Of a DNA stretch of 32,000 nt, positions 1-32,000 are shown piece by piece. The DNA is from Candidatus Saccharimonadota bacterium (lineage in GTDB: Bacteria; Patescibacteriota; Gracilibacteria; BD1-5; UBA6164). The notes under the pieces were generated by a model that saw nothing but the letters and a program-made list of their open reading frames with translations, made no database searches and was not told the origin of the DNA. The stretch lies in assembly GCA_965227835.1 (NCBI GenBank), contig OZ245768.1:1230001-1262000 (forward strand). The letters are read 5' to 3'. Position numbers and translations under genes: made by a program. Within the stretch, counting starts at the first letter, position 1, and each line of letters starts with the position of its first letter.

Positions 1-963
1 TATATCTCATCATTCTTCTAGAAACTTATCAAGTCTTTCTTCAAACTCTTCAAAACTATTTTTACCGTTTATATAAGACATTTTAGCTTGTATAGGATTT
101 TCTAGATTATACTTTTTTCTTTCTTCTTCTTTTTTTCTTTTATCACCTTCAGGATCAAAAATATGTACTAGCCTTGATGATTTTTTGTCTCAATTTATTA
201 ATAATATATTTGCTTCTCACCCTCTTTTCGCTACTACATATCAACCATCTGTTATATCTATTATTTCTGAAGGATATTCTTTGTCTTCCATATAGTTAGG
301 TCATATACACTTTTCAGAAACATAACATTGCTCATAAAAATTTGTTCATAGTTCTTTAGGTAAAGGTCTTATAAGTCAGTCTGTATATAGACCATAAGGT
401 GTTATTCTTTCTTTTTGTCATACCATCATATATAAAGGTTTATTATGCCATTTTAATACTGGCCCAAAAAGCACTGATTTTAGTTTTGCTATACTTTCAT
501 CTGGTTTTTCCACTAAAATTGTTGCTGTATTTGATTCTTTAACTACAAGCTTATCATTTTCCAACACTAAAAATCTTAAATAAAAAGAAACATATCCTCA
601 ATGTTTTTTTGATAAGCTAAATTTATATGTATCTTTTCTTTCTATATCTATTTCTCTGTTATTCATTCAATTTAAAACTGTTACAAACCTATATCAACTT
701 TCTTCATAGAAATATATTTTATCTTTTAGTTCATTAATTTTAAAAACTACTTCTTCTCATGGTTTATATACTTCTTTATCTGTTGAAATTTCTACCCAAT
801 TATCTTTTTTGTTATAATCTTTTTCTATAGAATCTAAATCTAAACTAAATTCATTTTTGATAATTTTGCCACTTTGAGAAAAAATACCTTTATTATTTCA
901 ATCATAGGAACTACATCAATTTAAAATAAAAATTAAAATGAAAACAAATATTGTTTTTTTCAT
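1..963 (-). CDS. putative lipoprotein; 3' end runs off the window
   Basis: ATG at 963..961. N-terminus MKKTIFVFILIFILNGCSS is a signal peptide plus lipobox L-N-G-C, and the lipobox Gly is a TGA codon. The frame stays open to position 1 only if TGA is sense. No family recognised. Confidence 0.6.
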
Positions 964-1007
964 GAATTAGGATAATTATAAAATAAGTTGTTAGTTATAG
1001 TTTATTT

Positions 1008-1680
1008 CAACACATCGGGATAAAAACCCCTATCTTTAGATAGTTAAGACACCGAAGGTGTAAGTGATAGAAATTGAATAAATGAGATGTGTTGTGACAT
1101 AGGGTTTTAAACCCCGTTGCCTTCAGGCCGATTCTAAAGAAAAAAGTGTAAAAAATCAATAGAATAAATAAAATAGTGTTAAAAACTAACACTAGAGAGA
1201 ATGAAATACCAAAAAAGTAGTCATGCGACATATGATGTCAGATACCATATAGTATGGATAACAAAATACAGAAATCCATTCATGACAAAAGAGATACAAG
1301 ATAGATTGGAAAAGATCATAAGATGAATAAGTAAAAAGCTATGAGTAATAATAATAAAGATATGAATGGAAGAAGATCATGTACATATGTATTGTAGGAT
1401 ACCGTTAACTAAACCAATATCTACAATAGTATGACATATAAAGTGAGAAAGTTCTAAGGCAATAAAGAGGTATTTTTACAAAGAAATTAAGAGATGGTAT
1501 TGGAAGACATGAAATATATGGTGAGTATGATATTTTGTATCTAGTGTATGAGAGATAAATTGAGAAATAATATCTAATTATGTGGAACAACAGTGAGAAG
1601 AAGAGAATAAGATTGAAGAGATAGAGCTTTAAATTTCAGTACAAATAAAAGCCCCGTGCCTTCAGGCCGGGGTAGAAGAA
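1008..1680 (+). mobile_element. IS200/IS605-family insertion sequence (tnpA only); ends approximate
   Basis: Y1 transposase flanked by related subterminal hairpins: left ccccgttGCCttcaGGCcg at 1112..1130 and right CCCCGtGCCttcaGGCCGGGG at 1652..1672. The ~0.67 kb size is typical of IS200. Confidence 0.6.
1201..1632 (+). CDS. tnpA: IS200/IS605 family Y1 (HUH) transposase TnpA
   Basis: 143 codons with TGA=Gly: MKYQKSSHATYDVRYHIVWITKYRNP...EEDHVHMYCRIP...GHIKGESSKAIKRYF...GVGYFVSSVGEINGEIISNYVEQQ. Shows the HxH (HUH) motif and the catalytic-Tyr region. Stop is TAA. Confidence 0.85.
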
Positions 1681-1819
1681 AAGCTAAAACTTTTTACTTT
1701 TAAAGTGTTTTTGTCAAATTTGTGAATTTTGAATTAGATGCTAAGATATAAAATTTAATTTTTAAAACTAGGATTGTTAACAAATAAAGCAATAAAAATT
1801 TTTTATTTATAAATGAAGC

Positions 1820-3178
1820 TTAGAAATTATCTTCAACGTACTCTATTAACAATAGATAAAATAATCATATATCTCCTTTTCAAATACCATCTTTTTCTAA
1901 CTTTATATATTTTCAATCAATTTTAAATATAAAGTCTTTATATTTATGTGTAGTGTTATTACTTAATTCAATTTTGTAGTTAAGCATATACAAAAAATAA
2001 TTAAATAGTTTTACATCATAATCATCAATTTTTTCTTTTATAGACTGAGAGCTCTCTAGTACTTTTATAAATCTATTTTTATCGTTTCAAAAGATAGAAA
2101 ATAATATATTTATAGATTTTTTTATAACATACTCTTTAGAGTCATACATGTATATAATTTTTTCTTTTAATTGTTTCATGTCATTATCTTTCCAGCAAAG
2201 TAATTCTCTCAATCCAAGTTTATACTGAGAATTTAACGAGATAGCACTAGATAAAACTATTTGTAAAAATAGGCTTATGTATCAACTTTCTTTTAAGAAT
2301 AATTTTAAACTTTCATCACATCTAAATCTCTCAATTATTTCCTTAATTTTCTCTTTTATAATCTTTTCATTATTGAAAAGAAAAACCTCTGAAGTATAAA
2401 ATTTGTTTATATATCAATTAAAATCTGTATCTTCTCAATATCTATGATGAAATATACTTTTTAAATTATTATAATCTCACACAAATATAATTTTATCAAA
2501 TCAAAACTTGTTTCACCCTAAATTATCAAAGTGTGCTCAAAAAATATTTAATAATCTAAATGTGTGTTCAGGATCAATTCTATCTAGGTCATCAAATATA
2601 AGTATACTTTTTTTATTTCACTTATTTTCCGAAACTTTATTTTTTATTAAGGTACTTATTAAATCTTCTTCATTAATATTTTTATTTTTAATTTCTTTAA
2701 GAATATTTTCATAAATTCATTTTTCTCACTTTTTAATATCTTCTGAAAATTCTTTGAATTTTTGAAGTAAACAGAATGTTTCTCACAAAGATTTTCATAT
2801 TTTTGGTATATAGGAAGCTATATTTCTAATAATATCTACCTTGTTTTCGTTATAAAACATATTAACTAAAGAATAAATATCTATAAGGTTTTCTATTTTT
2901 AAATCTTCTAGCACATTACTATTTTTTTTAAGAACTTCTACTAATATGTCATATTTTATTAAATTTATAATGTCTTCATTATTATTTATTTGATAATTTA
3001 TAGGAAATAAATGATATATATCATAGCTTTCTTTTGGAAGTTTCTTTAAAAAATATGTTTTTCATATTCAAAGCTTTCAAGAAAAAAGAATAGAAAAGTT
3101 ATTTTCTTGCTCTAAATGCTCTATAAATTCTTTTTGGATATTTTCTATAGATATAGTTATTTCTCATATTTTTTCCAT
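1820..3178 (-). CDS. KAP-family-like P-loop NTPase
   Basis: 452 aa with TGA=Gly. Walker A is FSGKLGIGKTYFL; Walker B is SILIFDDLDRIDPEHTFRLLN, matching the DDLDR-x-P signature of KAP NTPases. Stop is TAA. Confidence 0.65.
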
Positions 3179-3259
3179 AAACAAACTGATATTAAAAAAA
3201 TATTAAATTATATATTATTATTTTCATATAGTTAAATTTGCAATTTAGTTTACTATACC

Positions 3260-4804
3260 TTAATCTTTTTCACTTTTTCTAAAACTCAAAGATTCAAGCA
3301 CGTGTTTTTTTTCTATTTTTTCTTTTCATTCCAAATCAGCTATCGTCCTAGATAGTTTTAATATTCTAAAATAAGCTCTAGCTGATAAATCCAGATTATT
3401 AACAGCTTTTTTTAAAATCTCTTCAGTTTCTAAGTCAAGTTTACAAAAATTGTTTATATTTTCACTAGACATCTGTGAATTTGAACTAATTCCTTTGTCT
3501 TTAAATCTCTCTATTTGTATATTTCTAGCTTTTTGGATATTTTGTTTTAATTCCAAAGAAGATACATTTTGGGAATAATCATTTCACACTTTCAGTTTTT
3601 CCGTTTCAATTTTTGGAACTTCTATAAATATGTCTATCCTATCAAGAAGAGGTCAAGAGAGCCTTGATTTATAATTTTCAACCTGCTTTTTAGAACAAAT
3701 ACATTGTTTTCAAGGATCTGTTAAATATCAACAAGGACAAGGATTCATAGCTCAAACTAGAGAAAAATCAGCAGGATAATTATAAGTAGCATTTACTCTA
3801 TTTACTGTTATTTCTCAATCTTCTAAAGGTTGTCTTAAAACCTCCAAAACAGATTTTTCAAATTCCAAAATCTCATCTAAAAACAAAACTCATTTATGAG
3901 CTAGACTTATTTCTCACGGTTTTGCATTTCTTCATCAACCTATTATTGATATATTTGATGCTGTGTGATGGATAGATCTAAACGGTCTTTTGTTTACTAT
4001 AGGTATTTTTGAATTTAAAAGACCAGAGATACTATATATTTTAGATACTTCTATAGACTCTTCTATTGTTAAGTTTGGTAGTATTCCAGCAAAAGATTTT
4101 GCAAGCATAGTTTTTCAGCTTCATGGAGGACCACTCATAATTATGTTATGTCATCCTGCAGCAGCTATTTCTAAAGCTCTTTTTGCATGTTCCTGCCCCA
4201 GGATATATTTAAAATCATATCTACTTTCTAAAATCTTTTTTTCTTCTTCAAAATGTCTTGTAAAATCAAGTTTTTTTTGAGTCTTTAATTCTTTTTCTCA
4301 GTTTAAGACAGATATTAATTCAGATAATGATTCTACGGGAATTATATCTATATCTGGTATTATAGAAGCTTCCAGCGCATTTTTCTTTGGTATAAAAATT
4401 CTTTTAAATCATTTTTCTCTTGCTAATATAGTTGAAGGCAATATTGAATCTATTTCTCTAAGTTTTCAATCCAAAGAAAGCTCTCATAAAAAAATAGAAT
4501 CTTTTGTAAGATCATTTATTATATCTCATCTATTTAATAACACTCAAACAGCTATAGGTAAATCAAAACTTGGTCAGCTCTTTTTTATATTTGCAGGAGC
4601 TAGGTTTACCGTTATTCTGTTTGTTGGCAGTTTATTTCATGAAGATTTGAGAGCAGATCTTAGTCTTTCTTTACTTTCTTGTACACTTTGGTCAGCAAGA
4701 CCCACTATTGAAAAAGAGGGAAGTCAATTATTTATATCTATTTCTACCTCAACTAAATTAGAATTTAAGCCATTTGTAGCTATACTTTTTACTTTTACTA
4801 TCAT
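3260..4804 (-). CDS. comM: Mg-chelatase-like ATPase YifB/ComM
   Basis: 514 aa. Lon-like N-terminal domain, Walker A GPPGSGKT (cct cca tga agc tga aaa act), Walker B GVLFLDE, CPCGY zinc motif, and C-terminal LSARAYFRILKLSRTIADLE. Confidence 0.9.
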
Positions 4805-6384: not shown

Positions 6385-6426
6385 TTTATATTAATTTAAG
6401 TATATAATGTTTTTTAAACGAAAAGA

Positions 6427-9120: not shown

Positions 9121-10296
9121 CTAAAGCTTCTTTTTTCTCAAAAAACTAGGAACATCTAAATCTTCTTCTGCTGGAGCAGGTTTTGCTGGAATAACTCTTG
9201 AATCAGACACAACCTTTCTACCAAAAGGACTTACTTTAGAAATGGTCTTGTCTTCTATAGCTTTTTTATTTGTATTTTCATCAAATCAAGTAGCAACCAC
9301 AGTAATTTTAATTTCTCCCTCATAATCTTCCCTTATAGTAGAACCAAAAATTATATTAGCATCAGGATCTATACTTTCTGTTATAACCTTTGCAGCTTCA
9401 TCCACTTCATACATACTCAAATCTGTTCATCAAGTAACATTGAATAAAAGACCTTTTGCTCAAGCTATTGAAAGCTCTAAAAGAGGAGAATCAATAGCAC
9501 TTCTAGCCGCTTCTATTGATCTATTCTCTCAACTACCATAACCAATACCCATTAAAGCTGATCAAGCATTTCTCATTACAGATCTCACATCAGCAAAATC
9601 TACATTAATCAAACCAGGTTGAGTAATAAGATCAGATATTCACTGTACTCATTGATTTAAAACCTCATCTACTATTGAAAATGCTTCCAAAAGAGGAGTT
9701 TTTTTATCTATTATAGATAGAATTTTATCGTTAGGAATTGTAATCAATGTATCAACTTTTTCTTTCAAAGCCTCAAATCAATCAATAGATTTTCACATTC
9801 TATTTTGTCATTCAAAAGAAAAAGGTTTTGTAACTACTCATACAGTTAAAGCTCAAAGTTCTTTTGCTATTTCAGCTATTACTGGAGCAGCTCATGTTCA
9901 AGTTCCTCATCATAAACCACAAGTAATAAAAACCATATCTGCTCATTCAAGCACAGCTTTTATTTCCTCACTTGATTCTTCAGCTGCTTTCTTTCATACC
10001 TCAGGATCAGATCAAGCTCAAAGACCTCAAGTAGCTACTTTACCAATATTTAATTTTACACTAGCTAAACTGCTATAAAGAGCTTGAGAGTCTGTATTCA
10101 TAGCTATAAACTCTACTCACTCAAGGCCAGCTTCAATCATTCTATTTACAGCATTATTTCAACCTCAACCAATTCAAACAACTTTTATTTTAGCTACAGG
10201 AGAAATACTTCAAGAAATATTTACCTCCTGGGCTGAAGAAGTATTGGAAATCTTACCAGATAATAGGCTTTTTAGTTTGTCTTCTCTTCTTGTCAT
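9121..10296 (-). CDS. ftsZ: cell division GTPase FtsZ
   Basis: 391 aa. Contains GIGGGGNNAVNRM and the tubulin signature GLGGGTGTGAAP, with most Gly encoded by TGA. C-terminal peptide is [13 protein letters not shown]. Confidence 0.97.
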
Positions 10297-10331: not shown

Positions 10332-11570
10332 TTATGTTTTTGGCATTATTTTCTTAAAAAGTTTCTTAATAGAATCAAATATTCATGATAAATTTATGCT
10401 AAACTTTTGAAAATCTTCTCAATATCTGTTTGCAAAAATCATATTTCAAATTACTGAAACATAACTAGGATCGCTAACTGTTTTATCAACAAATTCATCA
10501 TTTATATTTGGAAATCATATAAAACTTGGAAGTCTAAGTATATCTTTTGAAAGCTCTATTAATCATTTTTGCTTAGCTCATCATCATACGAGAATGGCTC
10601 ATTCAGGAAGCATTCATTGCTTTCATATATTTATAAGTTCTCTATTAACAAACTCCAATATTTCTTCATATCTAGCAGTTGCTATTTGACTTAAATATTC
10701 TAAATCAATATCTCAATCAGCCATATCATATACACTTGATAGAGATAAATTTTTACTTTTTACAACTACTTCTTTTGATGACAATGTAGAATATTGTTTT
10801 TTTAATTTCTCTGCTATATCTATAGAAACCCTTGCTCAAAGAGCTATATCATTTGTAACATTATCTCAACCAAAAGGTATAACACAAGAGTGAATTAAAA
10901 CACTTTCTTCATATACAGATAATCAAGTACTAGCTGCTCAAATATCTATAAGTGCTACACCCAACTCTTTTTGTCTTTTTGTAAGCACTCACTCAGAAGC
11001 AGTTAAAATATTTGGATATATGTCAGATATTTCAATTCAAACATCGGCAATAGCTTTTTTTATATTATTTAAAACATTACTATTTATAGAAAATATATGA
11101 GCCTCTACTTCTATTTTTCTTGCTGACATTCAAATAGGATTTTTGATTCATGGTTCTAGGTCTACTGTAAAATGTTCTGGTATTACTTTTAGAATATCTT
11201 TATTTGGCATATCAATTCAGCTTTTAGCCATATCAAGGACTCTATCTACATCATCACTTGTTATTTCACTTGAATGAGTTGCTGTAATTCATTTGTTTAT
11301 AATTACATCAAAAGAAGAAGAGTTAAATGATATATAAGCACCACTTATTTGTTCTCAAGACATTTTTTCAGCTTCCAAAAGAGATTTATCTAAATCATCT
11401 TTAAATGATTCCATATCAAGGATATTTCATTTTCTTATAGACTTAGATTCTGATTCTCAAATTCATAAAACTATAAAATTTCCTTCTTCTTCATTTAAAA
11501 AACTTCAAATTACAGTTCTTATTTTATTACTTCATATGTCAATGGAAGTTATGATTTTATCAAAATTCAT
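10332..11570 (-). CDS. ftsA: cell division protein FtsA
   Basis: 412 aa, actin-like ATPase. Contains SIDIGSNKIRTVIG, LIDIGAASTGLSVY, IPFGGDNVTNDIA and ILVGGGAKQKGL. Lies immediately upstream of ftsZ. Confidence 0.9.
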
Positions 11571-13117: not shown

Positions 13118-13167
13118 TAGATATCTTGCTAAAATTGGATTTTAGTTTTAAAAAAACAAAAATAAAT

Positions 13168-13195
13168 TTGACATATATTTTTTATATATTATAAT
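13168..13195 (+). promoter_or_regulatory. near-consensus sigma70-type promoter TTGACA-N16-TATAAT
   Basis: TTGACA at 13168..13173 and TATAAT at 13190..13195. It points rightward into the IS30 left end, about 33 nt away. Confidence 0.45.
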
Positions 13196-13227
13196 CCACA
13201 TAATTCAATTTACCTGAATTAAACCCC

Positions 13228-14381
13228 GAAGTGCAATTTTTTAAATGAACTTAAAGAAGAAAATATAGCATTAAGAAATTTTTTATTTTTGAGATTATAA
13301 AAAATTTTGTTATAATTCCAAATACAACATTAAGATTGTGAAAAGTGTGCTTGATTAGGGGAAATAAATCAAAGTATTTCTCTAGGAGTATTTGCTAATA
13401 TATCGCAAATACTTTTTATTTTTTCATCACTTACATAATCAAATATAGTTCATTTAGGAAAAAATCTCCTGATAATCCTATTTAAATTCTCAATACTTCA
13501 CTTCTGCCAAGAAGAATAAGGCTCACAAAAGTAAGTATCTATTCATATATCATTTAATAAATAATGCTTAGCAAATTCCATTCAATTATCAAAAGTAACA
13601 GATTTAATTCATATATCATCTTTAACTCAAGCTATTAGATTAATTATATTTTCACTTGATTTATCTTTTATTTTAAAAATTTTAGGTAACCTAGTCTTTC
13701 TATCAACCAATGTAAGTATAGCTCATTTAAATCATTTTTTAGAAACAATTAAATCAGCTTCAATATGTCATTTTTCTTCTCTGTTATTTATTGTTTCAGG
13801 TCTATTTTTAATACTAACTCTATTTTTAATTTTCACTCTTTCTGTTTGTTGTTTTTTCTTTCTATAACCTTTATGTTTATATAATAATAGTTCTTTATAT
13901 TTATTTCACATACCAGTTTCTAGCCAAGAATATATACTTGTATGGGAGATATGTTTCTTTTTATCTGTTTGAGTATTATTCCGTTTCTTAGCAATTGTTT
14001 TTGGGGACATTTGTATTTCTGTTATTGATAGTTGTTCTATTATGAAATTTTTCATATTAGTATTCATATTTATCTTCATTGATTGAGTTTTTGTTAACCA
14101 TCGTCTTTGATATGATTTGATTTCTGCTTCTAGTGCTAAATATACTTTTTTATTGTTTCATCGTTTTTTTACTGAATTTCTGTATATCTCTCTGCTTATT
14201 GTTGATTCTGATCTTTTTAGTATTGATGCTATATCTTTTTTCTTTAATCATTTATTTAAATGAAATTCAATACTTTCTCTCTCTTGGAATATTAATTGTC
14301 AGTACATATCTTATTATATTAGAAAATAATGTTATTACCCTACGGGGAATACTATATTTTCTTCTCTTTTAATTGCACTTC
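13228..14381 (-). mobile_element. IS30-family insertion sequence (~1.15 kb)
   Basis: 11-bp terminal inverted repeat: GAAGTGCAATT at 13228..13238 and AATTGCACTTC at 14371..14381. Both ends also share the subterminal 14-mer AGAAGAAAATATAG. It encloses a single transposase ORF. Confidence 0.75.
13330..14307 (-). CDS. IS30 family DDE transposase
   Basis: 325 aa with TGA=Gly. HTH region is ERESIEFHLNKGLKKKDIASILKRSESTISREIYRN. DDE region includes GHIEADLI, FDNGMEFA and EPYSSWQKGSIENLNRIIRRFFPKG. TGG=W and TGA=G occur side by side in the conserved motif. Confidence 0.88.
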
Positions 14382-14461
14382 ATTTCTTACTTTGGGTTAC
14401 TGTAATTTAAATTGAAGAGGCCCTTAACATTTTAACAACACTACATTAGAGAGGTAAAATT

Positions 14462-15955
14462 ATGGTTATGTTGTGGATTCTTTTAGGGATAATTTGTGTT
14501 ATAGGTGTTGTGTATATCTCTATACGCAAAACTAAACATGAAAATGAAAACAAACGTTTGGGTGAGAACAGCCAATTTCCTATTCCCCCAAGAGTACGTC
14601 ATGTTCTTATAGGACTTGCTATGCTTTTTATGGGATTGGGAGCATTTAACGCAAACTTCTTTTATGCTGAACCTGGTTACATTTACCATGTTCGTACAAT
14701 AATTGGACAAGAGCGTGTGATTGATTCTGTTGGTTATAACTACTATTTTCTTGGTCGTATCAATCAATGGAAAAAGGCCATGACTGTTCAAGCTGTTTCT
14801 TTTAGTGATACAAGTGGAGATGAATCTCCTGATAGTGTAAATGCAGAAGGTGAAGGGGGAGCCCAAACTTCGGCTTCATTACCTCCTCTTTCCGTAGTTA
14901 TGCTAGATCAGGTTGACTCTAAAATATCAGCTACTACTCGTTTCCGTATTCCTAGTGATAGGGAGACTTTCCTTAGGATGGCTCATGAGTATCGCACACC
15001 TGAAAACTTACTTCGCACAGCACTGATTCCTGCTTTTAAGGAAACTTTGCAAGCTACTGGTTCTTTAATGGCTGCCGAAGAGTATTACAGTGGTCGTCGT
15101 ACTGAGTTTAATGCTGAGTTTGAGAATCAGATGCAAAATGGTATTTATCTTGTATCTCGACATCAAATAACTGTTGATGATCCCACAGCCCAAGCAAAGG
15201 CTTCTGCCGCAGCTAATCTAGGTGATGATCAAACTAACTTTGGTGAGGCAACAAAAGTTAGATGGGTTGTCAAAAAAAAGATGAGAGAAGATGGTACTTA
15301 TGAGCGTAAATCTCAAAAGTTCACTGAATATGGTATTGCTGTTATTGAAGCTCGTGTTACAGATTTGATTCCTAATTCCAAATTTGTAGAACGTATGCAG
15401 CTTAAACAACAAGCTGCTGCTGATCGTGCTATAGCTCAAGAGAAACGTGTTCAAGAAGAAGAGCAACGTTTGTTAGCAATTGCCAAAGGTGAACGCGAGG
15501 TTGCTGAAGAGCAAGCTGCTGCTAAGAAAGTTCAAATCAAACAGACTACTGAAGCTGAAACTGATAAAAGTCTTGCTCTAATTGCGGCCTCTAAGCAGTT
15601 AGAACAAGCTGAAATTGACAAGCAAACAGCTCAAATTCAGAAAGAAAAAGCTGATATTGATGCTGCGAGAATCAAGGTTTTAGCCGATGCTGATAAATAT
15701 GAGCGTGAAGCTCGTATTGCTGGTGATAATGCATTACAACAAAAATTGGATGCAGAAATTTCTATTCAACAAGTCTGGGCAGATGCTTATTCAAAAAGGC
15801 AGGTTCCAACCTATGTTTTTGGAAATGATTCTGGTCAGGGAGGAGCTCCTGTTGGTTCAGACTCGGAAGTTAAAAACTTTATGCAGCTCATGACTATAGA
15901 TGCTGCAACACGTTTGAACTACAATCGAGGTCTTGAATTTAACACTAGCAAATGA
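14462..15955 (+). CDS. SPFH/Band-7 (prohibitin/flotillin-like) membrane protein; apparently foreign and written in standard code
   Basis: 497 codons open under table 11. Two N-terminal TM helices, an SPFH-like core (VVMLDQVDSKISATTRFRIP...LLRTALIPAFKETLQATGSLMAAEEYYSGRRTEF...YGIAVIEARVTDLIP) and an Ala/Glu/Lys/Gln coiled coil. SD-like GAGAGG lies 7 nt upstream. No in-frame TGA. Ends in TGA followed by a terminator. Confidence 0.75.
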   Translation: MVMLWILLGIICVIGVVYISIRKTKHENENKRLGENSQFPIPPRVRHVLIGLAMLFMGLGAFNANFFYAEPGYIYHVRTIIGQERVIDSVGYNYYFLGRINQWKKAMTVQAVSFSDTSGDESPDSVNAEGEGGAQTSASLPPLSVVMLDQVDSKISATTRFRIPSDRETFLRMAHEYRTPENLLRTALIPAFKETLQATGSLMAAEEYYSGRRTEFNAEFENQMQNGIYLVSRHQITVDDPTAQAKASAAANLGDDQTNFGEATKVRWVVKKKMREDGTYERKSQKFTEYGIAVIEARVTDLIPNSKFVERMQLKQQAAADRAIAQEKRVQEEEQRLLAIAKGEREVAEEQAAAKKVQIKQTTEAETDKSLALIAASKQLEQAEIDKQTAQIQKEKADIDAARIKVLADADKYEREARIAGDNALQQKLDAEISIQQVWADAYSKRQVPTYVFGNDSGQGGAPVGSDSEVKNFMQLMTIDAATRLNYNRGLEFNTSK

Positions 15956-15977
15956 TTCAGAGTAAAATCTGAAGTGA

Positions 15978-16005
15978 GAGCCCCCATATGGGGGCTCTTT
16001 TTTTT
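15978..16005 (+). terminator. rho-independent terminator of the SPFH gene
   Basis: GAGCCCCC-atat-GGGGGCTC at 15978..15997, followed by eight T at 15998..16005. It begins 23 nt after the TGA. Confidence 0.85.
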
Positions 16006-16021
16006 ACCTTTAAATATATTT

Positions 16022-16777
16022 TTAGCTTTTTATACCTCTTCCTCTCTTAATCAAAAACAAAACTAATAAATACAAAGAAACGAGAAAAAATAATAATATT
16101 GATAAAGAAAATCAAACATCCACATCACTTATTCATATAAAAGAATATCTAAGTCAATTTATCATATAAAGAATAGGGTTAAATTTACTTACTTCTTGCC
16201 AAAAAGGAGATAACACAGATATAGAATAAAAAACTCAGCCTAAATATATCAAGGGGGTCATAATAAAACTAGGTATTATATTCACGTCATCAAAATTATT
16301 TGCAAAAATTCAGTTCAAAAGGCCTGCCAAAGAGAAAACTGCCGAAGTCAAAAATATAAAGAAAAACATATAAAGATAACTATAAACTTCTATATCTACT
16401 ATGAAAGATGAAAAAATAAAAACCAAAACTCAAACCATTATCCCTCTAAACATTCAAGCAATACAAAATCATATTATAATCTTGTTATAAGACATAGGAG
16501 AAACCAAAATCTCTTCCAAATTTCTAAACATTTTTCAAGCAAGAAAATTAAACGAAGTAAGAGAATAACTTCACATAATTATAGACATCATCAAAAGACC
16601 AGGAAATATAAAACTCATATAACTAACTCAACCTCATATATTTATCTGAGTTCAAAGAAATTTTCAAAATATTAAAATATATAAAATAGCTGTAATTACA
16701 GGTGGAAGCAAGGTTTGTTTCCAAATTTTCAAAAACCCTTTAGATAGTTTTAAAACAAGAGTAAAAAGATCTGTCAT
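16022..16777 (-). CDS. ABC-2 type transporter permease
   Basis: 251 aa with about 6 hydrophobic helices. Directly downstream of the ATPase gene (3-nt gap) on the same strand. Confidence 0.7.
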
Positions 16778-16780
16778 TTT

Positions 16781-17689
16781 TTACTTTATTAAACGTGTAA
16801 ACAATTGTTCAAGCCTAGAAGATTCATTTTTAAAGCTAGTTATTATAATTCAAGTATTATCAAAATCTTTTATAAGTTCATTTATAAAATATTTTCTATT
16901 TAAAGTTACTCTAATCTCATTTGCATCTAATATCTCAATTTTATATTTTTCTACTAGACTTTTCGGTAATTCTCACATTTTCTTTTTAGTATCCAAAATA
17001 ATAGTTTCTTCATCCAAGCTTTTCAAAAGTTCTTTTGTTTTCATTTGTTTTATGATTTTTCATTGACTTATAATAGCTAAGTTATCACAAAGGGCTTCAA
17101 CCTCTTCTAAATAATGGGTTGTTAAAAGTATCGTTGTTCATGTATTGTTTAGTTTTTTTAAAAACTGCCACGTGTTTTTCCTGAGCTCTACATCTATTCA
17201 TGCTGTGGGTTCATCAAGAATTAAAAGTTTTGGTTCATGTATCAAAGCCCTAACTATCATAAGCCTTCTTTTCATTCATCAAGAAAGTTGCCTTGCCTCA
17301 TTTTCTCTTTTATCCCATAATCATAACTCTTTTAAGTATTTTTCTGTTCTAATTTTAGCTCTTTTTGCTGGAATACCATAATATCATGCTTGTTCTAGAG
17401 GTATATCTTTCACTTTTGAAAACATACTAAAATTATGCTCTTGAGGTACTAAACCTATATATTTTTTAGCTTCTCTGAAATTCTTATCTATGTTTTCTCA
17501 AAATACCTTTACAATTCAACTATTTTTTCTAACTAAATCTGTTATTATTCAAATTAAAGTAGTTTTTCAGGCTCAATTATGACCCAAAAGAGCAAAAAAA
17601 TCTCATTTTATTATATCAAAACTTATTCATTTTAATATTTTTTTATCTCAATAGGTTTTTTCTAATTTTTTTATTTCTAATGCTTTCAT
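16781..17689 (-). CDS. ABC transporter ATP-binding protein
   Basis: 302 aa. Walker A GHNGAGKTT, signature LSGGMKRR, Walker B LLILDEPT, and H-loop TTHYLEE. Confidence 0.9.
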
Positions 17690-17699
17690 AATTTTTTAT

Positions 17700-18743
17700 T
17701 TATTCTTCTATTTTTAAGATTTTATCTCAAGTTATTTTAAATATATCTTTATCAATTTTTTTAAATTCTTTTCAAGCATTATTATAATGGTTCATGCTTG
17801 TATTTAAACTATTTCATAGCTTATAAAAATATTCTTCATAGGCTCAAAGGTGTCTTGCTAAATTTCATATTTGTTTTTTTATTTCTTTAGCTTGGTTTTC
17901 TATTTGTAATGCTCTAAGACCTTGCATAACTGTTTGTAGATAAGCATAAAAACTTGTTGGACTTACAATTATTACTTTTTTTTCTTTAAAAGCATATTCG
18001 ACTAAATCTATGGTATTAATATCAAGAGTACCAACTTTATTTATTAGTAGGTCATAATAAATTCATTCACTAGGAATAAACATAAATGCAAACTCCATAG
18101 TACCCTGTTCTGGTTTTATATATTTTGAAGTTTCATCTATTCTTTTTTTCAAATCTTTTCTTAATTCTCATTCATATTTTTCTTTTTCTAACTGGGTTTT
18201 TGATGCAAGTATTTTATTATAATTTTCTAAAGAAAATTTTGAATCTATGGGAATAATTTTTTCATTTATAAATATTGCGGCATCAACTCTTTCTCCAGAT
18301 TTAAATTTATATTGTAAACTATAGTTTTCTGGTGGGAGAATATTTTTTAAAACTGATTCTAGAAAATATTCTCAAAGAATTCATCTTTGTTTCGGATTTT
18401 TCAAGATACTTTCAAATCATTTCAATTGTCCTCCTATTTCTTTTATTTGATTGTTTGTTTCTTCTAAGCTGGCTAGTTTTTTGGTTATGTCTTCTATCAA
18501 TTTATTTGATTTATTAGATATATTTGAGTTAGTTTTTAAGTTTTCTAACAGGTTAGTATTTATGATTTTATTGTTTTGGCTTAGTTTTTCATCAAATATT
18601 TTTGAAAGATTAAAAATTTGATCTTGAATAAGTTTAGAAGAATTGTTACTAGAGTTTTTTTTTGTAACCAAAAAAATTGTTACTATAAGAAGGGCTGATA
18701 TTAAAAATAAAAGACTAAAAAGTAGTAATTCTTTATCCGACAT
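17700..18743 (-). CDS. rmuC: DNA recombination protein RmuC
   Basis: 347 aa. N-terminal TM helix, a coiled coil, then an RmuC-like core (RGILGEYFLE...VDAAIFINEKIIPIDSKF...FMFIPSEGIYY...IIVSPTSFYAYLQ). Confidence 0.75.
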
Positions 18744-18778
18744 AAGATTTTAAAATTTTATTATTTGTATAACTATAG

Positions 18779-19309
18779 TTATTCAGATTTCTCGGTTTTT
18801 GTTTCTATTTTATAGACAAGATAGTTTTTATCATCAAAATCTTCTTCAAGTTTTTTACTCAATACACCAACAAAATCTTCTCAAGTCATCAAACTACCTG
18901 ATATATTTGGTAAAATAGTAGCTGATTTTTCATAATCTGCTTTTATTACTAATACACCAAATTTAGACGGATCTATATTTTTTATTTCACCATCATTTAG
19001 AGGTTTTCATCTATCTATAATTTCATCTATTCTAATATTTATTTTTTCTTTTTCTTCTAGTTTTATTTTTTCAAATCTTGGATCATTTAATGCATTTATA
19101 ATATTTTCTATAAGTTCTAAAACTATATTTTCTTCTATTTCTTTTATGTTACCAGAACTTCATCTAATTTCTTGGGAAACATATAAACTAACAAAAATAC
19201 TTGCTTTTCTTTCTAAAAGAGATTTGTCTTTTATTTCAATTTCATCCAGTTTTGGGGTTCTTAAATTTTTAAAATAAAAGTCTATTATTTGTTTTGCTAA
19301 ATCAAGCAT
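18779..19309 (-). CDS. AMMECR1 domain protein
   Basis: 176 aa. SIFVSLYVSQEIRGSSGNI...NALNDPRFEKIKLEE matches the AMMECR1 pattern (FVTL..LRGCIG...DPRF) with Cys replaced by Ser. Confidence 0.55.
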
Positions 19310-19370
19310 GGTTTTTTTGTTAAAAAATATTTTTAAGGTTTTTTATAAACAATATTTTATAATCTTTTTT

Positions 19371-20495
<1,125 letters not shown>

Positions 20496-20525
20496 AATAA
20501 CAAAATTAGTATTAATTTTGTTATT
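20496..20525. repeat. perfect 13-bp inverted repeat abutting the ATPase start codon
   Basis: AATAACAAAATTA (20496..20508), loop gtat, then TAATTTTGTTATT (20513..20525). Confidence 0.6.
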
Positions 20526-20622
20526 ATGATATTATTTTTTTATAAAAAATGCAACTTTATTTTCAATTTATATTATATAAATATAAATTGTCTTCCTTTT
20601 TCAATAATCTTTTATCTTTTCA

Positions 20623-21375
20623 TTAAATACTATTTTTTTCTTCTTCTTCAGCTAATTTTTCTTTTTCTTCATTTTCTATTTGATAAAAAATATCTCCTAT
20701 TTGATCTTGATTTGTCAGCCTATTGTAATGAAAATATCAAAAATCAAAAAGGCCCTTAAAAAATACTTGAGAAAGGTTTATTATAGGCATTAAAAAAAGA
20801 AGGGAGATTAGTTTAGCATTGCCAGACTCAAAACTTGAAAAAATAAGTCCTGTTATAATCATAGAAAAAAATATTCAAACAAAACATCAATAAACAGATA
20901 CAAGTACATATCTATAATTGTTTAATATTTCAAGAATTAGACTTGTTCCAAAAATAACTATGGTTGTATGAAATAGGAAGGTTATCATTATGTAATCATA
21001 ATCTATTAATCCTACATATATATAGACAGGAAGAACGAATAGATAGGTTAGAAATGTGAAAAATGCAATTTGTCCAAATATTACTATGTTTTTTTTATAT
21101 CTTTCGGGTGCTGCAAAATTTAGAAAAAAGTAGTTTACAAAAACGGTTAGACTCGTAGATAGAAATGTTATTACAGACAGGGTTAAAGGAAATATTGCGC
21201 TTTGTTCTCATGCTCAAGTTCTTGCTACACTAAAGGCACTTCATACATTCATAAAAGACGAAATTGAAAAAATCAATATTAAAAGAATTATTGATCAGAT
21301 AATAGCACTAACAAATGCTCAAAGTGAAATAATCCCCAAGTCTCTTATTTCTATTTTTTCTGGTCAAAAGCTCAT
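20623..21375 (-). CDS. hypothetical multi-pass membrane protein with an acidic C-terminal tail
   Basis: 250 aa with TGA=Gly and about 6 hydrophobic segments. C-terminus is ENEEKEKLAEEEEKNSI. No family recognised. Confidence 0.5.
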
Positions 21376-21969: not shown

Positions 21970-22212
21970 ATGAAAAGTGTGTATTATCAGCTCATAGGAG
22001 TAAAAAGCGAAGAGGCTCAAGCCCTCGTTGATATAACTACAGATGAGCTTTCATCACCTGGTGCTTTAATAATAATTAGCAAAGGTAATGTATATACAAA
22101 CTGCCCATATATATCTAAAACACATAGTGAATCCAGACCTCATGTTACTTCTGTTAAGGAAATAAAAGGGGATATATCTGAATTGACTAAGTCTGAGATA
22201 AAAGGAGGATAA
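21970..22212 (+). CDS. hypothetical 80-aa protein; TGA-free and SD-led
   Basis: GGAGG lies 6 nt upstream of the ATG. All 6 Gly are GGN codons. Sequence MKSVYYQLIGVKSEEAQALVDITTDELSSPGALIIISKGNVYTNCPYISK... belongs to no family I recognise. Stop is TAA. Confidence 0.5.
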   Translation: MKSVYYQLIGVKSEEAQALVDITTDELSSPGALIIISKGNVYTNCPYISKTHSESRPHVTSVKEIKGDISELTKSEIKGG

Positions 22213-25607: not shown

Positions 25608-25640
25608 AATCTCAAATATTTACTCTTTTAAATTTTTCTT

Positions 25641-25829
25641 ATGTCTGAATTTGCTCCACCTTCTAGAAAAGTAAAGGTTACTAAATCTCAGATGAAAAAA
25701 TACGTAAAGGATATAGAAGAACAAAAGAATAAAGCTAAGAAAAAAATAGACCAAGCTAAAAAATCTGGTGAATTTGATAAAGAAGAAAAAGATTTAGAAA
25801 AACTTGAAAATTTAATTGATGATTTGTAG
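25641..25829 (+). CDS. hypothetical Lys/Glu-rich 62-aa protein
   Basis: Open ATG..TAG ORF 33 nt after rplA with host-like composition. No family recognised; it is not L10. Confidence 0.35.
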   Translation: MSEFAPPSRKVKVTKSQMKKYVKDIEEQKNKAKKKIDQAKKSGEFDKEEKDLEKLENLIDDL

Positions 25830-26158
25830 AGACTAAATTATTTTTGTTGTAAATTAAATTTTTCAAATAATTTTTGATTTGATCTTGGGATAATATAAAA
25901 ACTTAATTTGCAATTTAGTTTTATATACTCATTACTAAATAACAATCAAAATTAAAATCATTCTTGGTGTAAACCGTGGGCTTTTTCAAAAATAGAGATT
26001 TCTTACAAGTGCAAAGAACTTTAGCTCTTTGCCTAAAGAAATATATTAATTTTGGTTTAATTTGAAATAGGATTTATTTTGCAAAAATTGTGCTATCCAA
26101 AATGCTGAAACCTTCTGTTGACAGACCAAAATAGTTTCAGAATAATTTATTAAAATTA

Positions 26159-26572: not shown

Positions 26573-26581
26573 AGATATAAA

Positions 26582-27245
26582 TTTATTTTTTTAGATTTCT
26601 CATTTTCCACCTTTCTATTTCTTGATGATTTCAAGATAATAGCACCTTTGGAACTTCCAAGTCCTTAAAATTCTTTGGTCTTGTATATAAAGGATATTCT
26701 TTTCTTCTATTTAGTTTTAAAGAAAAACTCTCTTCCTCTAGGCTTTTTTCATTTCAAATTACTCCTGGTATATGCCTAAGGATAGTATCAATGAATACTT
26801 GGCTTGCCAATTCTCAGCTAGATAAAATATACTCTCAAATACTTACTTCGTAATCCACATACAAATCTATTATTCTTTGGTCTATTCATTCATAGTGCCC
26901 ACAAATTATTATAAATTCTCAAAAGTCTTTAAGTTTACAATAATAATTTTCTACCTTTTCTTGACTCAACAAATCTCAAGAAGGTGACATATAAAAAACA
27001 GGTATTTTTTTGCTAAGTTTTTTGAAAATATGTTCAATATTTTCTGCCAAAGGTTTTGGGGATATCACTTGACCATGCATTCCATATGTTTTATCATCTA
27101 CATGTTTAAATTTTTTATCTGAGAAATCATTTAGCTTGTAAAGTTCATACTCAAAAAGTCATTTTTTATTTGCCCTAAATATGGTTGAACTTGAAAAGTA
27201 ACCACTAAAACTTTCGGGAAATATCGTTATTATATGAATTTTCAT
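26582..27245 (-). CDS. trmD: tRNA (guanine37-N1)-methyltransferase TrmD, interrupted by a 1-nt frame disruption
   Basis: N-terminal frame 27245..27114 gives MKIHIITIFPESFSGYF...KLNDFSR then TAA. The C-terminal frame runs to 26582: DKKFKHVDDKTYGMHGQV...IICGHYEGIDQR...SIGEYILSSGELA...LLSGNHQEIERW. Total length is 664 nt, which is not a multiple of 3. Confidence 0.8.
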
Positions 27246-27822
27246 ATTTTTTTATTATTTTTAGAACTTCTTCTAATACTTCTTTTGGTGTTTTATTTCA
27301 TGTATCTATAATATGGTTACATATTTTTTTAGCTTGTTTTTTTTCATATATAATGCTTTTTTTTCTATTTTCAAGCTCTTTTCTGCATATATCTTTTTCT
27401 CTTTCTAATATTCTTTTTTCCAATGTGTCTTTTGGTATATCAAGAAATATAGATATTATATGTTTTTTTAACTGGGGATTATTTTTAAATATGTTTTTAA
27501 GTCCTCTGATATCTACTTCTTTTATTAAATTTTTTCATCTTTTTAATCAGTTTATTATATCTTCTTTTTTGGTTCAATAATAATTCAGCTTATGTACTAA
27601 TTCATATTCTAAAAACTCTTCTTTTTTTATGGATTCTTGGAATTCTTTTTCTGATAAAAAATAATAAACGTCTCCGTTTATTTCATTTTTTCGCATATTT
27701 CTAGTGACATATGATTTTATAAAGCATAATCATTCTATATTTTTATTCTTTAAATTTCTAATTAAAGTTCATTTTCCAGAGCCAGAGACTCACATTATAA
27801 AATATAGACATCTTTTTGTCAC
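27205..27822 (-). CDS. gmk: guanylate kinase
   Basis: 205 aa from GTG at 27822 (alternative ATG at 27795). Contains GVSGSGKGT, SYVTRNMRKNEINGDVYYFLSEKEF and FLEYELVHKLNYYGT. The 3' end overlaps the trmD start by 41 nt. Confidence 0.7.
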
Positions 27823-27980
27823 TTTTGGTTTAATGTATTGTATAAAATAAAAAAATTTGATGGATTATAAGAAAAAAACAATAAAAATCTATTTTTTATT
27901 TATAAAAATTTGTATAAAGTAGTGTGTTGAGGCTATTTTTAATATTTTTGCAGAAGTATATTTTTTAAACTTTTTGATAA

Positions 27981-28637
27981 ATGAAACCCTTTTTAAAAAT
28001 TCTTCCTTTTTTACTTATTTTTTTTCTTTTATTATATTTTTGTATTTGATTTTCTAAACCTTATGAGATAAATATAAAAAGTTCTGTATTTCAAATTTTA
28101 TTGAAAAAAAATATAAATCTTGACTCAAAAGAACTAAAAACTCACAGCTATAAGAATATAGAAAGTTTTTTACCCGTTTGAAAGTGATTTTTAATAGATG
28201 AAAAAGGTTTGTTTCTAACTTCAAAGCATATATTAAATCAAGATATTTGACTTTATTTTATAAAAATATGAGATAGAAATTATAGTTTTGATTTATTGAA
28301 TATACATGATGATAGGGATATTTTGGTTTGAAGAATAAAAAATTTTTGAAGTAAAGATTATATTATACCAAATTTTCCAAAAGATTTAGAAGTTTGAGAA
28401 AGAGTTTTTTATATAAAGGATTGAGAAAGGGTTTATTGAGAAATTACAGGTTTGGATGAAAATATAGATGACTTAAAATTAAAAGGTCTAATAAAAACAA
28501 ATTTAAAATTAGGCTTATGAGATAGCTGAACTCCTTTGATAAGGCAAGATTGATCTCTTATAGGTATTAATTCTGCTATAGATGAATATAGTTGATTTTC
28601 TTTTGCTCAAAAACTAGACAGGGATTATTTTGAATAG
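27981..28637 (+). CDS. secreted trypsin-like (S1/HtrA-type) serine protease without a PDZ domain
   Basis: 218 aa. Signal/TM N-terminus. Triad contexts are LTSKHIL, DRDILV and GDSGTPLI. Confidence 0.6.
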
Positions 28638-28658
28638 ATAACTAAAAAATTCAAAAAA

Positions 28659-28689
28659 ATAGCCACCGGAAATTATTTCTGGTGGCTAT
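28659..28689 (-). terminator. rho-independent terminator of the 102-aa ORF
   Basis: ATAGCCACC (28659..28667) pairs with GGTGGCTAT (28681..28689). On the minus strand the hairpin is followed by ATTTTTTTGAATTTTTT. Confidence 0.75.
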
Positions 28690-28699
28690 TGTAAAGTAC

Positions 28700-29008
28700 C
28701 TACAATCCAAAATTTGGATCATTAAAGTGTTTCCAAAACTCCAATACTTCATCATCTGATAAGGGTAAACAAAGTCTTGGAATTGAATTTTTGTCATGCA
28801 CAATCTTTCTTGAATAACAAAAGTCTATTTTTATTTCAATAGTATAACCACCATCATTTAAATAAGATTTTATCAAACCTTTCACTGATGAGTAAAGATT
28901 ATTAATTTCAGAAACTATTTTAATAGGTCCTTTATTAGTTTGTATACAGTAACGATTTGTTATCTCATCTTCTGTAATAAAGACTTTGCAAACGCTAATA
29001 TTAAGCAT
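28700..29008 (-). CDS. hypothetical 102-aa protein; TGA-free and SD-led
   Basis: AGGAGG lies 5 nt upstream of the ATG. All Gly are GGN codons. Sequence MLNISVCKVFITEDEITNRYCIQTNKGPIKIV...LPLSDDEVLEFWKHFNDPNFGL belongs to no family I recognise. Stop is TAG. Confidence 0.55.
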   Translation of the reverse strand: MLNISVCKVFITEDEITNRYCIQTNKGPIKIVSEINNLYSSVKGLIKSYLNDGGYTIEIKIDFCYSRKIVHDKNSIPRLCLPLSDDEVLEFWKHFNDPNFGL

Positions 29009-29073
29009 TTTAACCTCCTAGTTTTTTAAAAAAGAGAAACTACTATAATCTGCTATAAAAGACAGAGTGTTTA

Positions 29074-29102
29074 TATATAATAATTTATTATATGTTTGTC
29101 AA
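29074..29102 (-). promoter_or_regulatory. sigma70-type promoter TTGACA-N17-TATATA for the 102-aa ORF
   Basis: The minus strand reads TTGACA (29102..29097), a 17-nt spacer, then TATATA (29079..29074), about 65 nt upstream of the ATG. Confidence 0.45.
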
Positions 29103-29170
29103 ATAAATTTTTTTTGAAAAAGGCATTAACTGATTAATATTTGTTTTAATTTTAAATATAATTTTAAAAA

Positions 29171-30508
29171 ATGATAGATTTAAAACCTGCTTCTTGATTT
29201 GAAGAAAAACTTCCAGAAGCTTATTTGGTTGAAGAGAATTTCAAAGAAATAATTAAAAAAAACTACTCACTTTCTTGATTTACATCCATAGATACTCCCA
29301 ATATAGAAAAAATAGAAACTCTACTAGCTAAATGAGTAGAAGAAAATGAAATATATTGAGTTAAAAGACTAAAATCGGAAGACAAAAATGAATTTGAAAT
29401 AGGTCTTCGTTTTGATTTAACTGTACCTTTAGCTAGGTATGTTTCAAAATATAAATGAGAAATAAGTTTTCCTTTTAAAAGACAGCATATATGAAGAGTT
29501 TATAGATGAGAGAGACCTCAAAAATGAAGATATAGAGAATTTTATCAAGCAGACATTGATATAATATGAAACGGTTCTCTTCCTTTATTTGCAGATGTTG
29601 AAATAATATCTACCTTGTATAATAGTCTTTTAAAACTAAATTTTTGAGAATTTGTAATAAATATAAACAATAGAAAACTTTTATGAGGATTTTTAGAGGC
29701 TATAGGTGTTAAAAATATAGAAAAAGCTATATCTATACTTGATAAAAAGGATAAGCTAAATTTAGAAAATCTTGAAAAAATGTTTCAAGATGAGAATTTA
29801 TTATCAGAAGAAATTAAGCAAATATTTAATTTAATAGAATTATCTGAAAAAAAAGACTGAATAGATGTGTTGTTATTTTTTGAAAAATTCAAAAAATTAA
29901 GCTGACCTAATTTACTTTCTGAAGGAATTGAAGAGTTAAAATATATTTATGAAAATTTATTAAATATTTGAGTTGATAAAAGCTACATAAAAATAAACCC
30001 CACAATATCAAGAGGTTTGAACTATTATACATGAACCGTAATGGAAACTTTTATAGTTTGAGCTGAAAATATATGAAGTATAGCTTCTGGTGGTAGGTAT
30101 GAAAATTTATGTTCTAGTTTTTCTTGAGACAAATATCCTTGAGTATGATGTAGTATTTGATTATCAAGATTAATATCAATATTATCAGGTTTGTGAAAGA
30201 TAAATTATGATATTAAAACTGTAAGTAGTGTTTTGGTCTTAAACACATGAAAGGAATTTCTTCAAAAAAATTTAGAAATAGTTAAATATCTAAGGGAAGA
30301 GTGAATAAATACAGAGTTTTATTTAGATAGTGAGACAAAATTAGCCAAACAAATTAAGTATGCTGATAAAAAATGAATAAGGTTTGTGATAATCAATTGA
30401 GAAGATGAAATGGAGAAGAACCTAATGAGTATAAAAGATTTAAAAAAGGGTGAACAATACAGTATGAAAATAAATGAAGTTAAAAGTGTAATTTTAGGCA
30501 CTAAATAA
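29171..30508 (+). CDS. hisS: histidine--tRNA ligase
   Basis: 445 aa. Contains [57 protein letters not shown] and ASGGRYENL, plus a C-terminal anticodon-binding domain. Confidence 0.9.
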
Positions 30509-30576
30509 AAACATATTAACATATACTATATATAAGTAGTTTTATTATGATATGTATAAATAACAAGTAAAATTAA

Positions 30577-30606
30577 AAATATCCTCATTATAAACTGGGG
30601 ATATTT
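30577..30606 (-). terminator. hairpin between the convergent hisS and AI-2E transporter genes
   Basis: AAATATCC, a 14-nt loop, then GGATATTT. The minus strand follows with TTAATTTTA. Confidence 0.35.
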
Positions 30607-30681
30607 CTTCAAAAATAGAAACTTTTTAGACTTTTCATAAACCTTAATAGCAAAAGGCTAAAGTCCTTTGTTGACAAAAAA

Positions 30682-31842
30682 CTACTTCTTACTAGCTATA
30701 GCCTTTTTCGTTTTTAGCTTACTTATAGCTCCATCAAAATCTTTTAATAGCTCTGCTATAAAATAAAACAAACTTACTCATATAAGAAGCCCTGCTATTC
30801 AAAATAGTCTTTCTCAAATAAAAAGTATCAAGAAAGTCAAGCTTAGAGGAAGTTTTAAAAAATTAGAAAATATTTTAGGGTTTAGGTAATATGCTTCTAT
30901 GGTGTGTATTATTATTATAAGAAGTATTATTGCTATTACCATAGCAATTGATCCAGTTGAAGAATAAGCTACTATCAAAATAGGTATACTAGATAAAAAC
31001 ACTCAAAGTACAGGTACAAATCAAAATATAAAAACAACTAGTCAAAGTGTCAGTAAATAGGGAAATCATATTCACTGCATAAAAACACTTCATATTATAA
31101 ATAAACCTATAGATGTTAAAACAGTATTAATGAGAGCAATTAATGATTGAGCTTTTATTATTAATCCAAAACTTCTTATTATTTTGTCAAAAATAATCTT
31201 GTACTCATTATATAAAAAAGAGAAGTTAGATTTTTTTATTCATGATAAATAACTTTTTAATCTTTTTCTATCAAGTAAAAAAACCAAACTTAAAATCAAA
31301 GAAAAAACTATTTGCAAGAGTACTATTCAAGCACTTTTAGCTCTATTAAAAATTTCTATAAAGAGTTTGTAGTCACTACTTGAAAAAGCCTCTTTCAAGG
31401 TAGAACCTATTTCTGTATAATCCTTGTTTATATTTCATAAAAAAGCTTTTATATTGTTAAGCTGGTCTTGTAGTATGGGTATAGTATTAGCTAAACCTGT
31501 TAATTCTGATTGAATTTTTGGTACAGCCCCACTTATTATAGAAATAAAAATAAGTAAAAATAAAAAGTACTCTATTACTATTATTAGGTTTAAACTGAAA
31601 TATTTTTTGAAAATTGTTTTACTTGAATTACTTTTTAATTTTTTACAAATTATATCTTCTACTTTCTCTTTTAAAAATTTAGCAATAGAGTAAAAAAGGT
31701 AAGCAAATATAAATGTTAGAAAAAATATTATTATAAAATCACTAAAAGAAAACAAAATCAGTAATAAAATACCATAAGATATAGCTTTGTAGTAAAAAGA
31801 TTTTGTGAAAATAAGCGATGTGATTTTATTTAATTCTTTCAT
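30682..31842 (-). CDS. AI-2E family (PerM/YhhT-like) transporter
   Basis: 386 aa with TGA=Gly and about 8 hydrophobic helices. The overall layout resembles the AI-2E/UPF0118 family. Stop is TAG. Confidence 0.55.
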
Positions 31843-32000
31843 ATTTAATTTAAATATTCTAATTTAAAAAATTATTTTTTGATATATTTCTTGATTTATA
31901 GAATGAGAAATTTGAAATAATAAGTTTTTTGCCTAAACATAATAAAACAAAAATTTAAAAAAACTTAATTTTATCTGCATTTGGATGTTCTTTTAATTTT

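Follow-up and report, generated by a model that had tools for sequence, protein, structure and literature searches.

The DNA analyzed here is a 32-kb stretch (positions 1–32,000, the window) of contig OZ245768.1, which is 1,489,121 bp long. We hold with strong confidence that it is best explained as a chromosomal segment of a BD1-5 member of the Gracilibacteria written in NCBI translation table 25, together with one recent island of standard-code DNA beside an insertion sequence (IS) of the IS30 family. On this explanation UGA would be decoded as glycine, UGG would be kept for tryptophan, and translation would terminate at UAA and UAG only, with UGA as the main glycine codon of the window (69% of the Gly codons).

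The recoding itself is already known, as an earlier note on this DNA had said, and there is nothing new in it: the code has its own table, belongs to a known clade, and is supported by proteomics of a BD1-5 bacterium, for which 97 peptides were unique to UGA = Gly versus 3 for Trp (PMC4032931). Campbell et al. 2013 and Rinke et al. 2013 are the papers cited for it in PMC8629427. The window shares with NCBI table 25 (the SR1 and Gracilibacteria code) the glycine UGA, the tryptophan UGG, the UAA and UAG stops, low GC content, and Gracilibacteria neighbors, and differs from it in no way of kind; UGA is here the majority glycine codon. The island, which carries a single SPFH/Band-7 gene of phage type, is a modest addition beyond the known recoding.

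Coding density under alternative codes

The base composition of the window is 25.2% GC. Stop-to-stop open reading frames (ORFs) of at least 100 amino acids (aa) sum to 2,652 aa under table 11 versus 13,381 aa if TGA is sense. Expressed as coding cover, which is the best non-overlapping set of start-to-stop ORFs and is given as a range, table 11 accounts for 10–22% of the window and TGA as sense for 82–84%. Control readings with TAG or TAA as sense gave 16–31% and 44–72%, respectively, and both were rejected; the high TAA-sense cover is a product of the AT richness of the DNA, not of genes. Once TGA is taken as sense, the window resolves into about 30 adjoining genes, as the earlier note had estimated, and the segment (1–32,000) is readable as a Gracilibacteria chromosome only in this way, with Gly at TGA. 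Under table 11, the 32 kb hold a single ORF of at least 150 aa, which is the foreign SPFH gene (14462–15955), and the reading frames of ftsZ, ftsA, and hisS, previously called essentially invisible under this table, contain no ORF of at least 60 aa.

Gene identities were obtained from Pfam scans with X placed at every TGA. These scans recognized an IS200 transposase, ComM, trigger factor, FtsZ, FtsA, a SpoIIE phosphatase, and an ABC-2 transporter pair; RmuC, AMMECR1, AAA_14/DUF4143, LspA, a radical-SAM methylthiotransferase, GNAT, and VKOR; and L1, TrmD, Gmk, HisS, and an AI-2E transporter.

The amino acid encoded by TGA

Four independent tests support UGA = Gly (table 25): residues in structural homologues, profile scores, amino acid composition, and orthologue codons. 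For the first, eight proteins with TGA masked as X were aligned to solved structures from standard-code organisms, and the residue opposite each X was counted. TGA fell on Gly at 97 of 137 aligned positions (71%; binomial p ~9e-72, the background Gly share of target residues being 8.4%) and on Trp at none. The product of ftsZ (9121–10296, minus strand; 27 in-frame TGA) aligned with 24 of its 27 TGA positions on Gly of Bacillus subtilis FtsZ (2vam), that of hisS (29171–30508, plus strand; 26 TGA) with 20 of 26 on Gly of the HisRS chain of PDB entry 3net, and that of rplA (ribosomal protein L1; 24915–25607, plus strand; 9 TGA) with 7 of 9 on Gly of B. subtilis L1. The corresponding counts were 14 of 23 for comM (Mg-chelatase-like AAA+; 3260–4804, minus strand; 23 TGA), 11 of 19 aligned for ftsA (10332–11570, minus strand; 28 in-frame TGA), 10 of 13 for the ABC ATPase, 7 of 8 for TrmD, and 4 of 12 for the MiaB-like protein. 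The GGN codons of the window fell on Gly at a similar rate, 43 of 58 (74%), and TGA therefore behaves exactly as a glycine codon.

The claim that in-frame TGA sits on invariant glycines had been made in the earlier note from a handful of quoted strings, and it agrees with these alignments. A string search located all of the quoted DNA strings, every one on the minus strand: the FtsZ tubulin loop GGTTTATGATGAGGAACTTGAACATGA (GLGGGTGTG) at 9892–9918, a second FtsZ motif TGAATTGGTTGAGGTTGA (GIGGGG) at 10159–10176, the ComM Walker A motif GGTCCTCCATGAAGCTGAAAAACT (GPP-TGA-S-TGA-KT) at 4109–4132, and the IS30 motif TCTTGGCAGAAGTGAAGT (SWQK-TGA-S) at 13495–13512. The L1 motifs LPN-TGA-SGK and L-TGA-PK-TGA-LMPNPKA-TGA-T were seen in the translation, opposite LPNGTGK and LGPKGLMPNPKTGT of B. 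subtilis L1.

Pfam bit scores were compared with G, X, or W substituted at the TGA positions, and for every domain compared the ranking was G > X > W. The respective scores were 173, 127, and 108 for the Tubulin domain of FtsZ; 127, 96, and 80 for HisS; 311, 279, and 267 for ComM; 184, 167, and 154 for L1; and 114, 81, and 68 for ABC_tran.

Across 28 host genes, 404 of 8,770 codons are in-frame TGA, and the amino acid composition is normal only if UGA is Gly: Gly content is 6.6% counting TGA and 2.0% without it, and Trp content is 0.39% from TGG alone, compared with 5.0% under table 4. All 27 complete host genes end at TAA (19) or TAG (8), as had been claimed for the host-like genes, and none at TGA; the sole TGA-terminated gene in the window is the imported SPFH gene.

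For the orthologue comparison, eight genes were codon-aligned with their counterparts on two Gracilibacteria contigs, L003 (GCA_028696815.1) and L004 (CP042461.1, strain 28_42_T64). Window TGA codons (198 comparisons) corresponded to TGA in 119 cases, GGN in 59, TGG in 0, and another codon in 20. Window GGN codons (90 comparisons) corresponded to TGA in 38 cases, GGN in 43, TGG in 0, and another codon in 9, and window TGG codons (12 comparisons) stayed TGG in 11 cases, with TGA and GGN at 0 and one other codon. Hence, TGA and GGN exchange freely, and exchange between TGA and TGG is never seen.

Lineage and public translations

The window is syntenic with three Gracilibacteria contigs, L002 to L004; the first of these, a metagenomic contig (ENA ERZ25074195), shows about 96% nucleotide identity and is syntenic across most of window positions 1–22152. 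The top FtsZ matches that carry an organism name all belong to Candidatus Gracilibacteria (74–84% identity, including the closed genome 28_42_T64), and no Absconditabacteria or SR1 entry occurs among these named top matches. The lineage is therefore Gracilibacteria/BD1-5 and not SR1: the earlier assignment to Gracilibacteria/Absconditabacteria (SR1) stands in its first half and fails in its second.

At the 27 TGA columns of the window, the best 120 FtsZ matches have G 2,218 times and W 853 times. These W residues stand for TGA codons and result from the use of table 4 in public pipelines. Public protein sets treat the source contig and many Gracilibacteria relatives in this way (P0001, P0121–P0240); individual FtsZ entries have up to 27 Trp at conserved glycines, and one (P0121) is “93% identical” only through W-for-G.

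Decoding machinery

In this organism, by analogy with members of the clade that have been characterized, decoding of UGA as glycine would rest on a tRNA-Gly(UCA) combined with the absence of release factor 2 (RF2). The presence of this tRNA and the RF2 status are the expected markers of code 25; two non-recoding “Gracilibacteria” have RF2 and lack the tRNA, and RF2 was reported in non-recoded members only (PMC8629427). The glycine identity elements expected in such a tRNA(UCA) are G1:C72, C2:G71, G3:C70, and U73.

As a check at the level of the clade, a collection of species-representative genomes was scanned with a tRNA pattern comprising a UCA anticodon, a T-loop, and a GCG...CGC-U73 acceptor; the acceptor identity is thus imposed by the pattern and is no independent sign of Gly identity. 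The scan gave at least 120 loci, and the source contig is not among the matches listed. Among the 120 matches listed, ARAGORN found at least 44 real tRNAs with a UCA anticodon, and 76 were chance matches without such a tRNA. About 27 of these 44 come from records named Candidatus Gracilibacteria, and most of the others, again among the matches listed, come from Altimarinus records, records labeled “Peribacteria” or Patescibacteria, and unnamed bacterial metagenome-assembled genomes. A tRNA scan of the flanks of the relatives L002 to L004 found no tRNA(UCA).

The Gracilibacteria tRNA(UCA) genes (L011, L018, L021, and other loci) are 79 nt long and have in common a D-arm of unusual form and great length (gcgggggtaacataaaagagtgagtgtactaaggcttcaaccc...). 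The gene in L018 is followed, 42 nt downstream, by a tRNA-Gly(GCC) gene.

A standard-code SPFH island

The foreign island (14399–16018, plus strand) is 1.6 kb long and absent from L002. Positions 14501–16000 have 40% GC versus about 25% elsewhere. The island holds one gene of 497 codons (14462–15955, plus strand), whose Pfam Band_7 domain (PF01145) scores 46.6 bits at a cut-off of 23.6, and which has more than 1000 homologues, all annotated PF01145. The earlier note had described the whole window as written in code 25. This holds for the host genes, but the SPFH gene is written for the standard code, an exception that the wording “host-like” had hinted at. All 30 of its Gly codons are GGN and none of its internal codons is TGA, so a host that reads UGA as Gly can still translate it correctly. 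Its Arg codons are CGT in 18 of 31 cases; in host genes, 221 of 275 are AGA. The gene ends in AAA TGA, the stop being at 15953–15955, and 37 of 39 homologues end within –5 to +8 residues of this TGA, which identifies it as the ancestral stop codon. An intrinsic terminator (15976–16006, plus strand) follows 20 nt past the TGA; it has a 10-bp GC-rich stem and reads GAGAGCCCCCATATGGGGGCTC and then a T run.

A host that reads UGA as Gly would decode this stop as glycine and add 37 residues, partly hydrophobic. The predicted read-through (15953–16066, plus strand) would extend the protein by 37 codons (GFRVKSEVRAPIWGLFFLPLNIFLAFYTSSSLNQKQN) to the TAA at 16064–16066, crossing the terminator and overlapping the convergent ABC-2 permease gene at its 3′ end. 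Translation of this extension in the host is inferred. The database product of this gene from the window has 534 aa, with W at its TGA.

The nearest homologues of the SPFH protein (67–72% aa identity) lie on three T4-like phage contigs, in all of which the SPFH gene directly follows a CCA-adding-enzyme gene and is surrounded by numerous small, co-oriented ORFs. Further features found on individual contigs are a 15-tRNA array, DsrC, an RNA ligase, and a Gp23 match; one of the three is an IMG/VR viral genome. The contig that was checked for stop usage (L001) uses the standard code, with TGA stops in 12 of 35 genes and no in-frame TGA in 5,163 codons, and it is a T4-like phage, probably of sulfur-oxidizing Gammaproteobacteria. 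L001 also holds the closest SPFH homologue; its positions 14405–20964 contain 15 tRNA genes in an array, DsrC, and the CCA-adding enzyme. Named cellular homologues belong to marine Gammaproteobacteria (55–62% identity), and the homologues in cultured phages (myophages) are distant only (35–41%). The island has 39.5% GC and 23.7% GC at third codon positions, similar to the 40.2% and 28.8% of the phage copy in L128. Most probably, the island was acquired recently, in association with the IS30 element, from a source that uses the standard code, with a T4-like phage as the likeliest donor. Overall, we lean narrowly toward the scenario in which the SPFH gene of a standard-code T4-like phage was captured very recently beside the IS30 element, keeping its TGA stop and terminator, and is read through by the host.

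Large myophages and marine Gammaproteobacteria have SPFH/Band-7 proteins (stomatin/prohibitin/HflC-like) with a Band_7 domain and an N-terminal membrane anchor, as in the window gene, which differs in its place on a Gracilibacteria chromosome and in its predicted 37-residue extension through a reassigned stop. Liu et al. 2023 (PMC10746230) described phages compatible with code 11 that are predicted to infect Gracilibacteria and Absconditabacteria. Like the SPFH gene, the standard-code genes of those phages lack in-frame TGA, and their proteins can be made correctly where UGA is read as Gly. Those phages avoid TGA stops, however, whereas the island gene keeps one, as do 12 of 35 genes in L001; furthermore, they are phage genomes, whereas the present case is a single chromosomal gene beside an IS30 element.

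The insertion site and other strain-specific segments

The IS30 element (13215–14398, minus strand, ends approximate) adjoins the island and is likewise absent at this site in L002. Its transposase (13330–14307, minus strand) scores 222.7 bits against NF033563 with TGA read as Gly (cut-off 80) and has 14 such TGA codons, which together indicate that it is native to code 25. The two ends of the element, whose termini are approximate, share GAAGTGCAATT in inverted orientation. In L002, the SpoIIE and ABC-2 genes lie 60 bp apart and window positions 13155–16018, which contain the IS30 element and the island, are missing. Judged from this comparison, the insertion of the island appears recent, because a 96%-identical syntenic contig lacks it. 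A further IS30 end on the right side of the island, as would make a composite or one-ended transposon, was searched for by eye in 15950–16060 and not found.

Elsewhere in L002, positions 305–487 are a 99% remnant of the IS30 end (window 14396–14214) at a different site, beside a DUF3750 gene, and positions 19146–19335 are a further copy of this end (79%). Such copies at other sites indicate that the IS family is active in the population. In the 60 bp between the end of the SpoIIE gene and the left end of the IS30 element lies a perfect sigma-70 consensus (13168–13195, plus strand; TTGACA, 16 nt, TATAAT). L002 lacks this stretch as well; the promoter is directed into the IS, in antisense orientation relative to the transposase.

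Two further segments are absent from L002. The first (1008–3255) contains an IS200-type tnpA (1201–1632, plus strand) and a KAP-family P-loop NTPase gene (1820–3178, minus strand), whose product is recognized by Pfam only with TGA as Gly. The second (19349–20612, minus strand) is an AAA_14/DUF4143 ATPase gene with 16 TGA. Both segments are rich in TGA = Gly codons, which points to an origin within the code-25 gene pool.

Alternative explanations

Several points count against the explanation given at the outset. ARAGORN found no tRNA gene in the window, and for the source genome a tRNA-Gly(UCA) and the loss of prfB are predictions. The residue opposite TGA was not Gly at 29% of the aligned positions, with a single PDB homologue per protein, although the similar rate for GGN codons attributes this share to divergence and not to another meaning of TGA. 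The check on Trp comprises few TGG codons (4 in the PDB alignments and 12 in the orthologues). As for the island, its direct donor is unsampled, the best match being 72% identical at the amino acid level, and a chimera of the assembly at the IS30 repeat would also account for it.

In such a chimera, foreign reads would have been joined to the host sequence at the IS30 repeat. The island does abut an end of the IS30 element, copies of an IS are classic points of misassembly, and the composition of the island is foreign. On the other hand, the host sequence is collinear with L002 on both flanks, and on the right the island joins unique intergenic DNA, with the stop codon of the ABC-2 permease gene 3 nt from the junction. 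An artefact would require two precise joins just 1.6 kb apart in a contig of 1.49 Mb, and we regard it as improbable.

A code richer than plain table 25, in which CGG and/or CGA would additionally mean Trp and code 25 would be incomplete, seems to us a little more doubtful still. Shulgina and Eddy predicted that Trp is encoded by CGA/CGG in Absconditabacteria and by CGG in some Gracilibacteria (PMC8629427), and in the window both codons are very rare (CGA 4 and CGG 2 among 8770 host codons). Against it, the one CGG in a conserved context, in VKOR, lies opposite an Arg of human VKORC1 (a weak alignment, E = 0.01), and relatives show TGG, never CGG, at the TGG columns of the window. With six codons in all, this comparison has no statistical power.

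Reading UGA as tryptophan (table 4) is highly improbable. This code is used by Mycoplasma and Spiroplasma and by some insect endosymbionts. The window resembles these organisms in its sense UGA, AT-rich genome, and ORF map, the ORF structure being the same under tables 4 and 25, and W stands at TGA in the translations that the public protein collection gives for the source contig and for many relatives. The encoded amino acid is what differs: none of the 137 aligned TGA codons lies on Trp as opposed to 97 on Gly, Pfam scores with W fall below even those with X, orthologues show zero interchange of TGA and TGG, and the resulting proteins would have 5.0% Trp and 2.0% Gly. Table 4 was rejected on the alignments, Pfam scores, and orthologue codons, in line with the argument in the earlier note that TGG is still used for Trp.

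Least credible of all is the standard code with TGA as real stops in pseudogenes, as sequencing errors, or as selenocysteine or read-through sites, which has nothing in its favor except the near-empty table-11 ORF track and was rejected on the alignments to PDB homologues, Pfam scores, and the orthologue codon comparison, as 404 in-frame TGA over 28 genes lie at conserved Gly of essential ftsZ, rplA, and hisS among others, other genomes have TGA or GGN at the same positions, and an Rfam scan of the window found no selenocysteine insertion sequence (SECIS) or other RNA family at the gathering threshold or at E ≤ 0.1.

Other features of the window

Between lspA and the MtaB-like gene, an 80-aa ORF (21970–22212, plus strand) is preceded by a GGAGGA ribosome-binding site. 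GGN accounts for all six of its Gly codons and TGA for none, which is unusual versus the 69% TGA use of the window; it matches no Pfam family and is 94.5% conserved in L002. Two gaps of about 0.5 kb (25608–26158 and 28638–29167) are devoid of convincing ORFs and match nothing in Rfam, even at E ≤ 0.1. In the neighborhood of rplA, the usual L10 and L7/L12 genes are not found downstream, nor L11 upstream.

Implications

Every annotation of this window depends on table 25, as table 11 shows almost nothing and table 4 replaces hundreds of conserved glycines by Trp, which reduces the scores of homology searches; public entries for this clade that were translated with table 4 should be distrusted accordingly. 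If the proposed origin of the SPFH island is true, it would constitute a natural case, and one that can be dated, of a gene passing between organisms with different genetic codes, and would point to uptake by these bacteria of DNA from standard-code phages or their gammaproteobacterial hosts. The SPFH gene then illustrates that the code change would be no barrier to incoming genes without internal TGA, the immediate cost of this import being the loss of its stop codon and a C-terminal extension.

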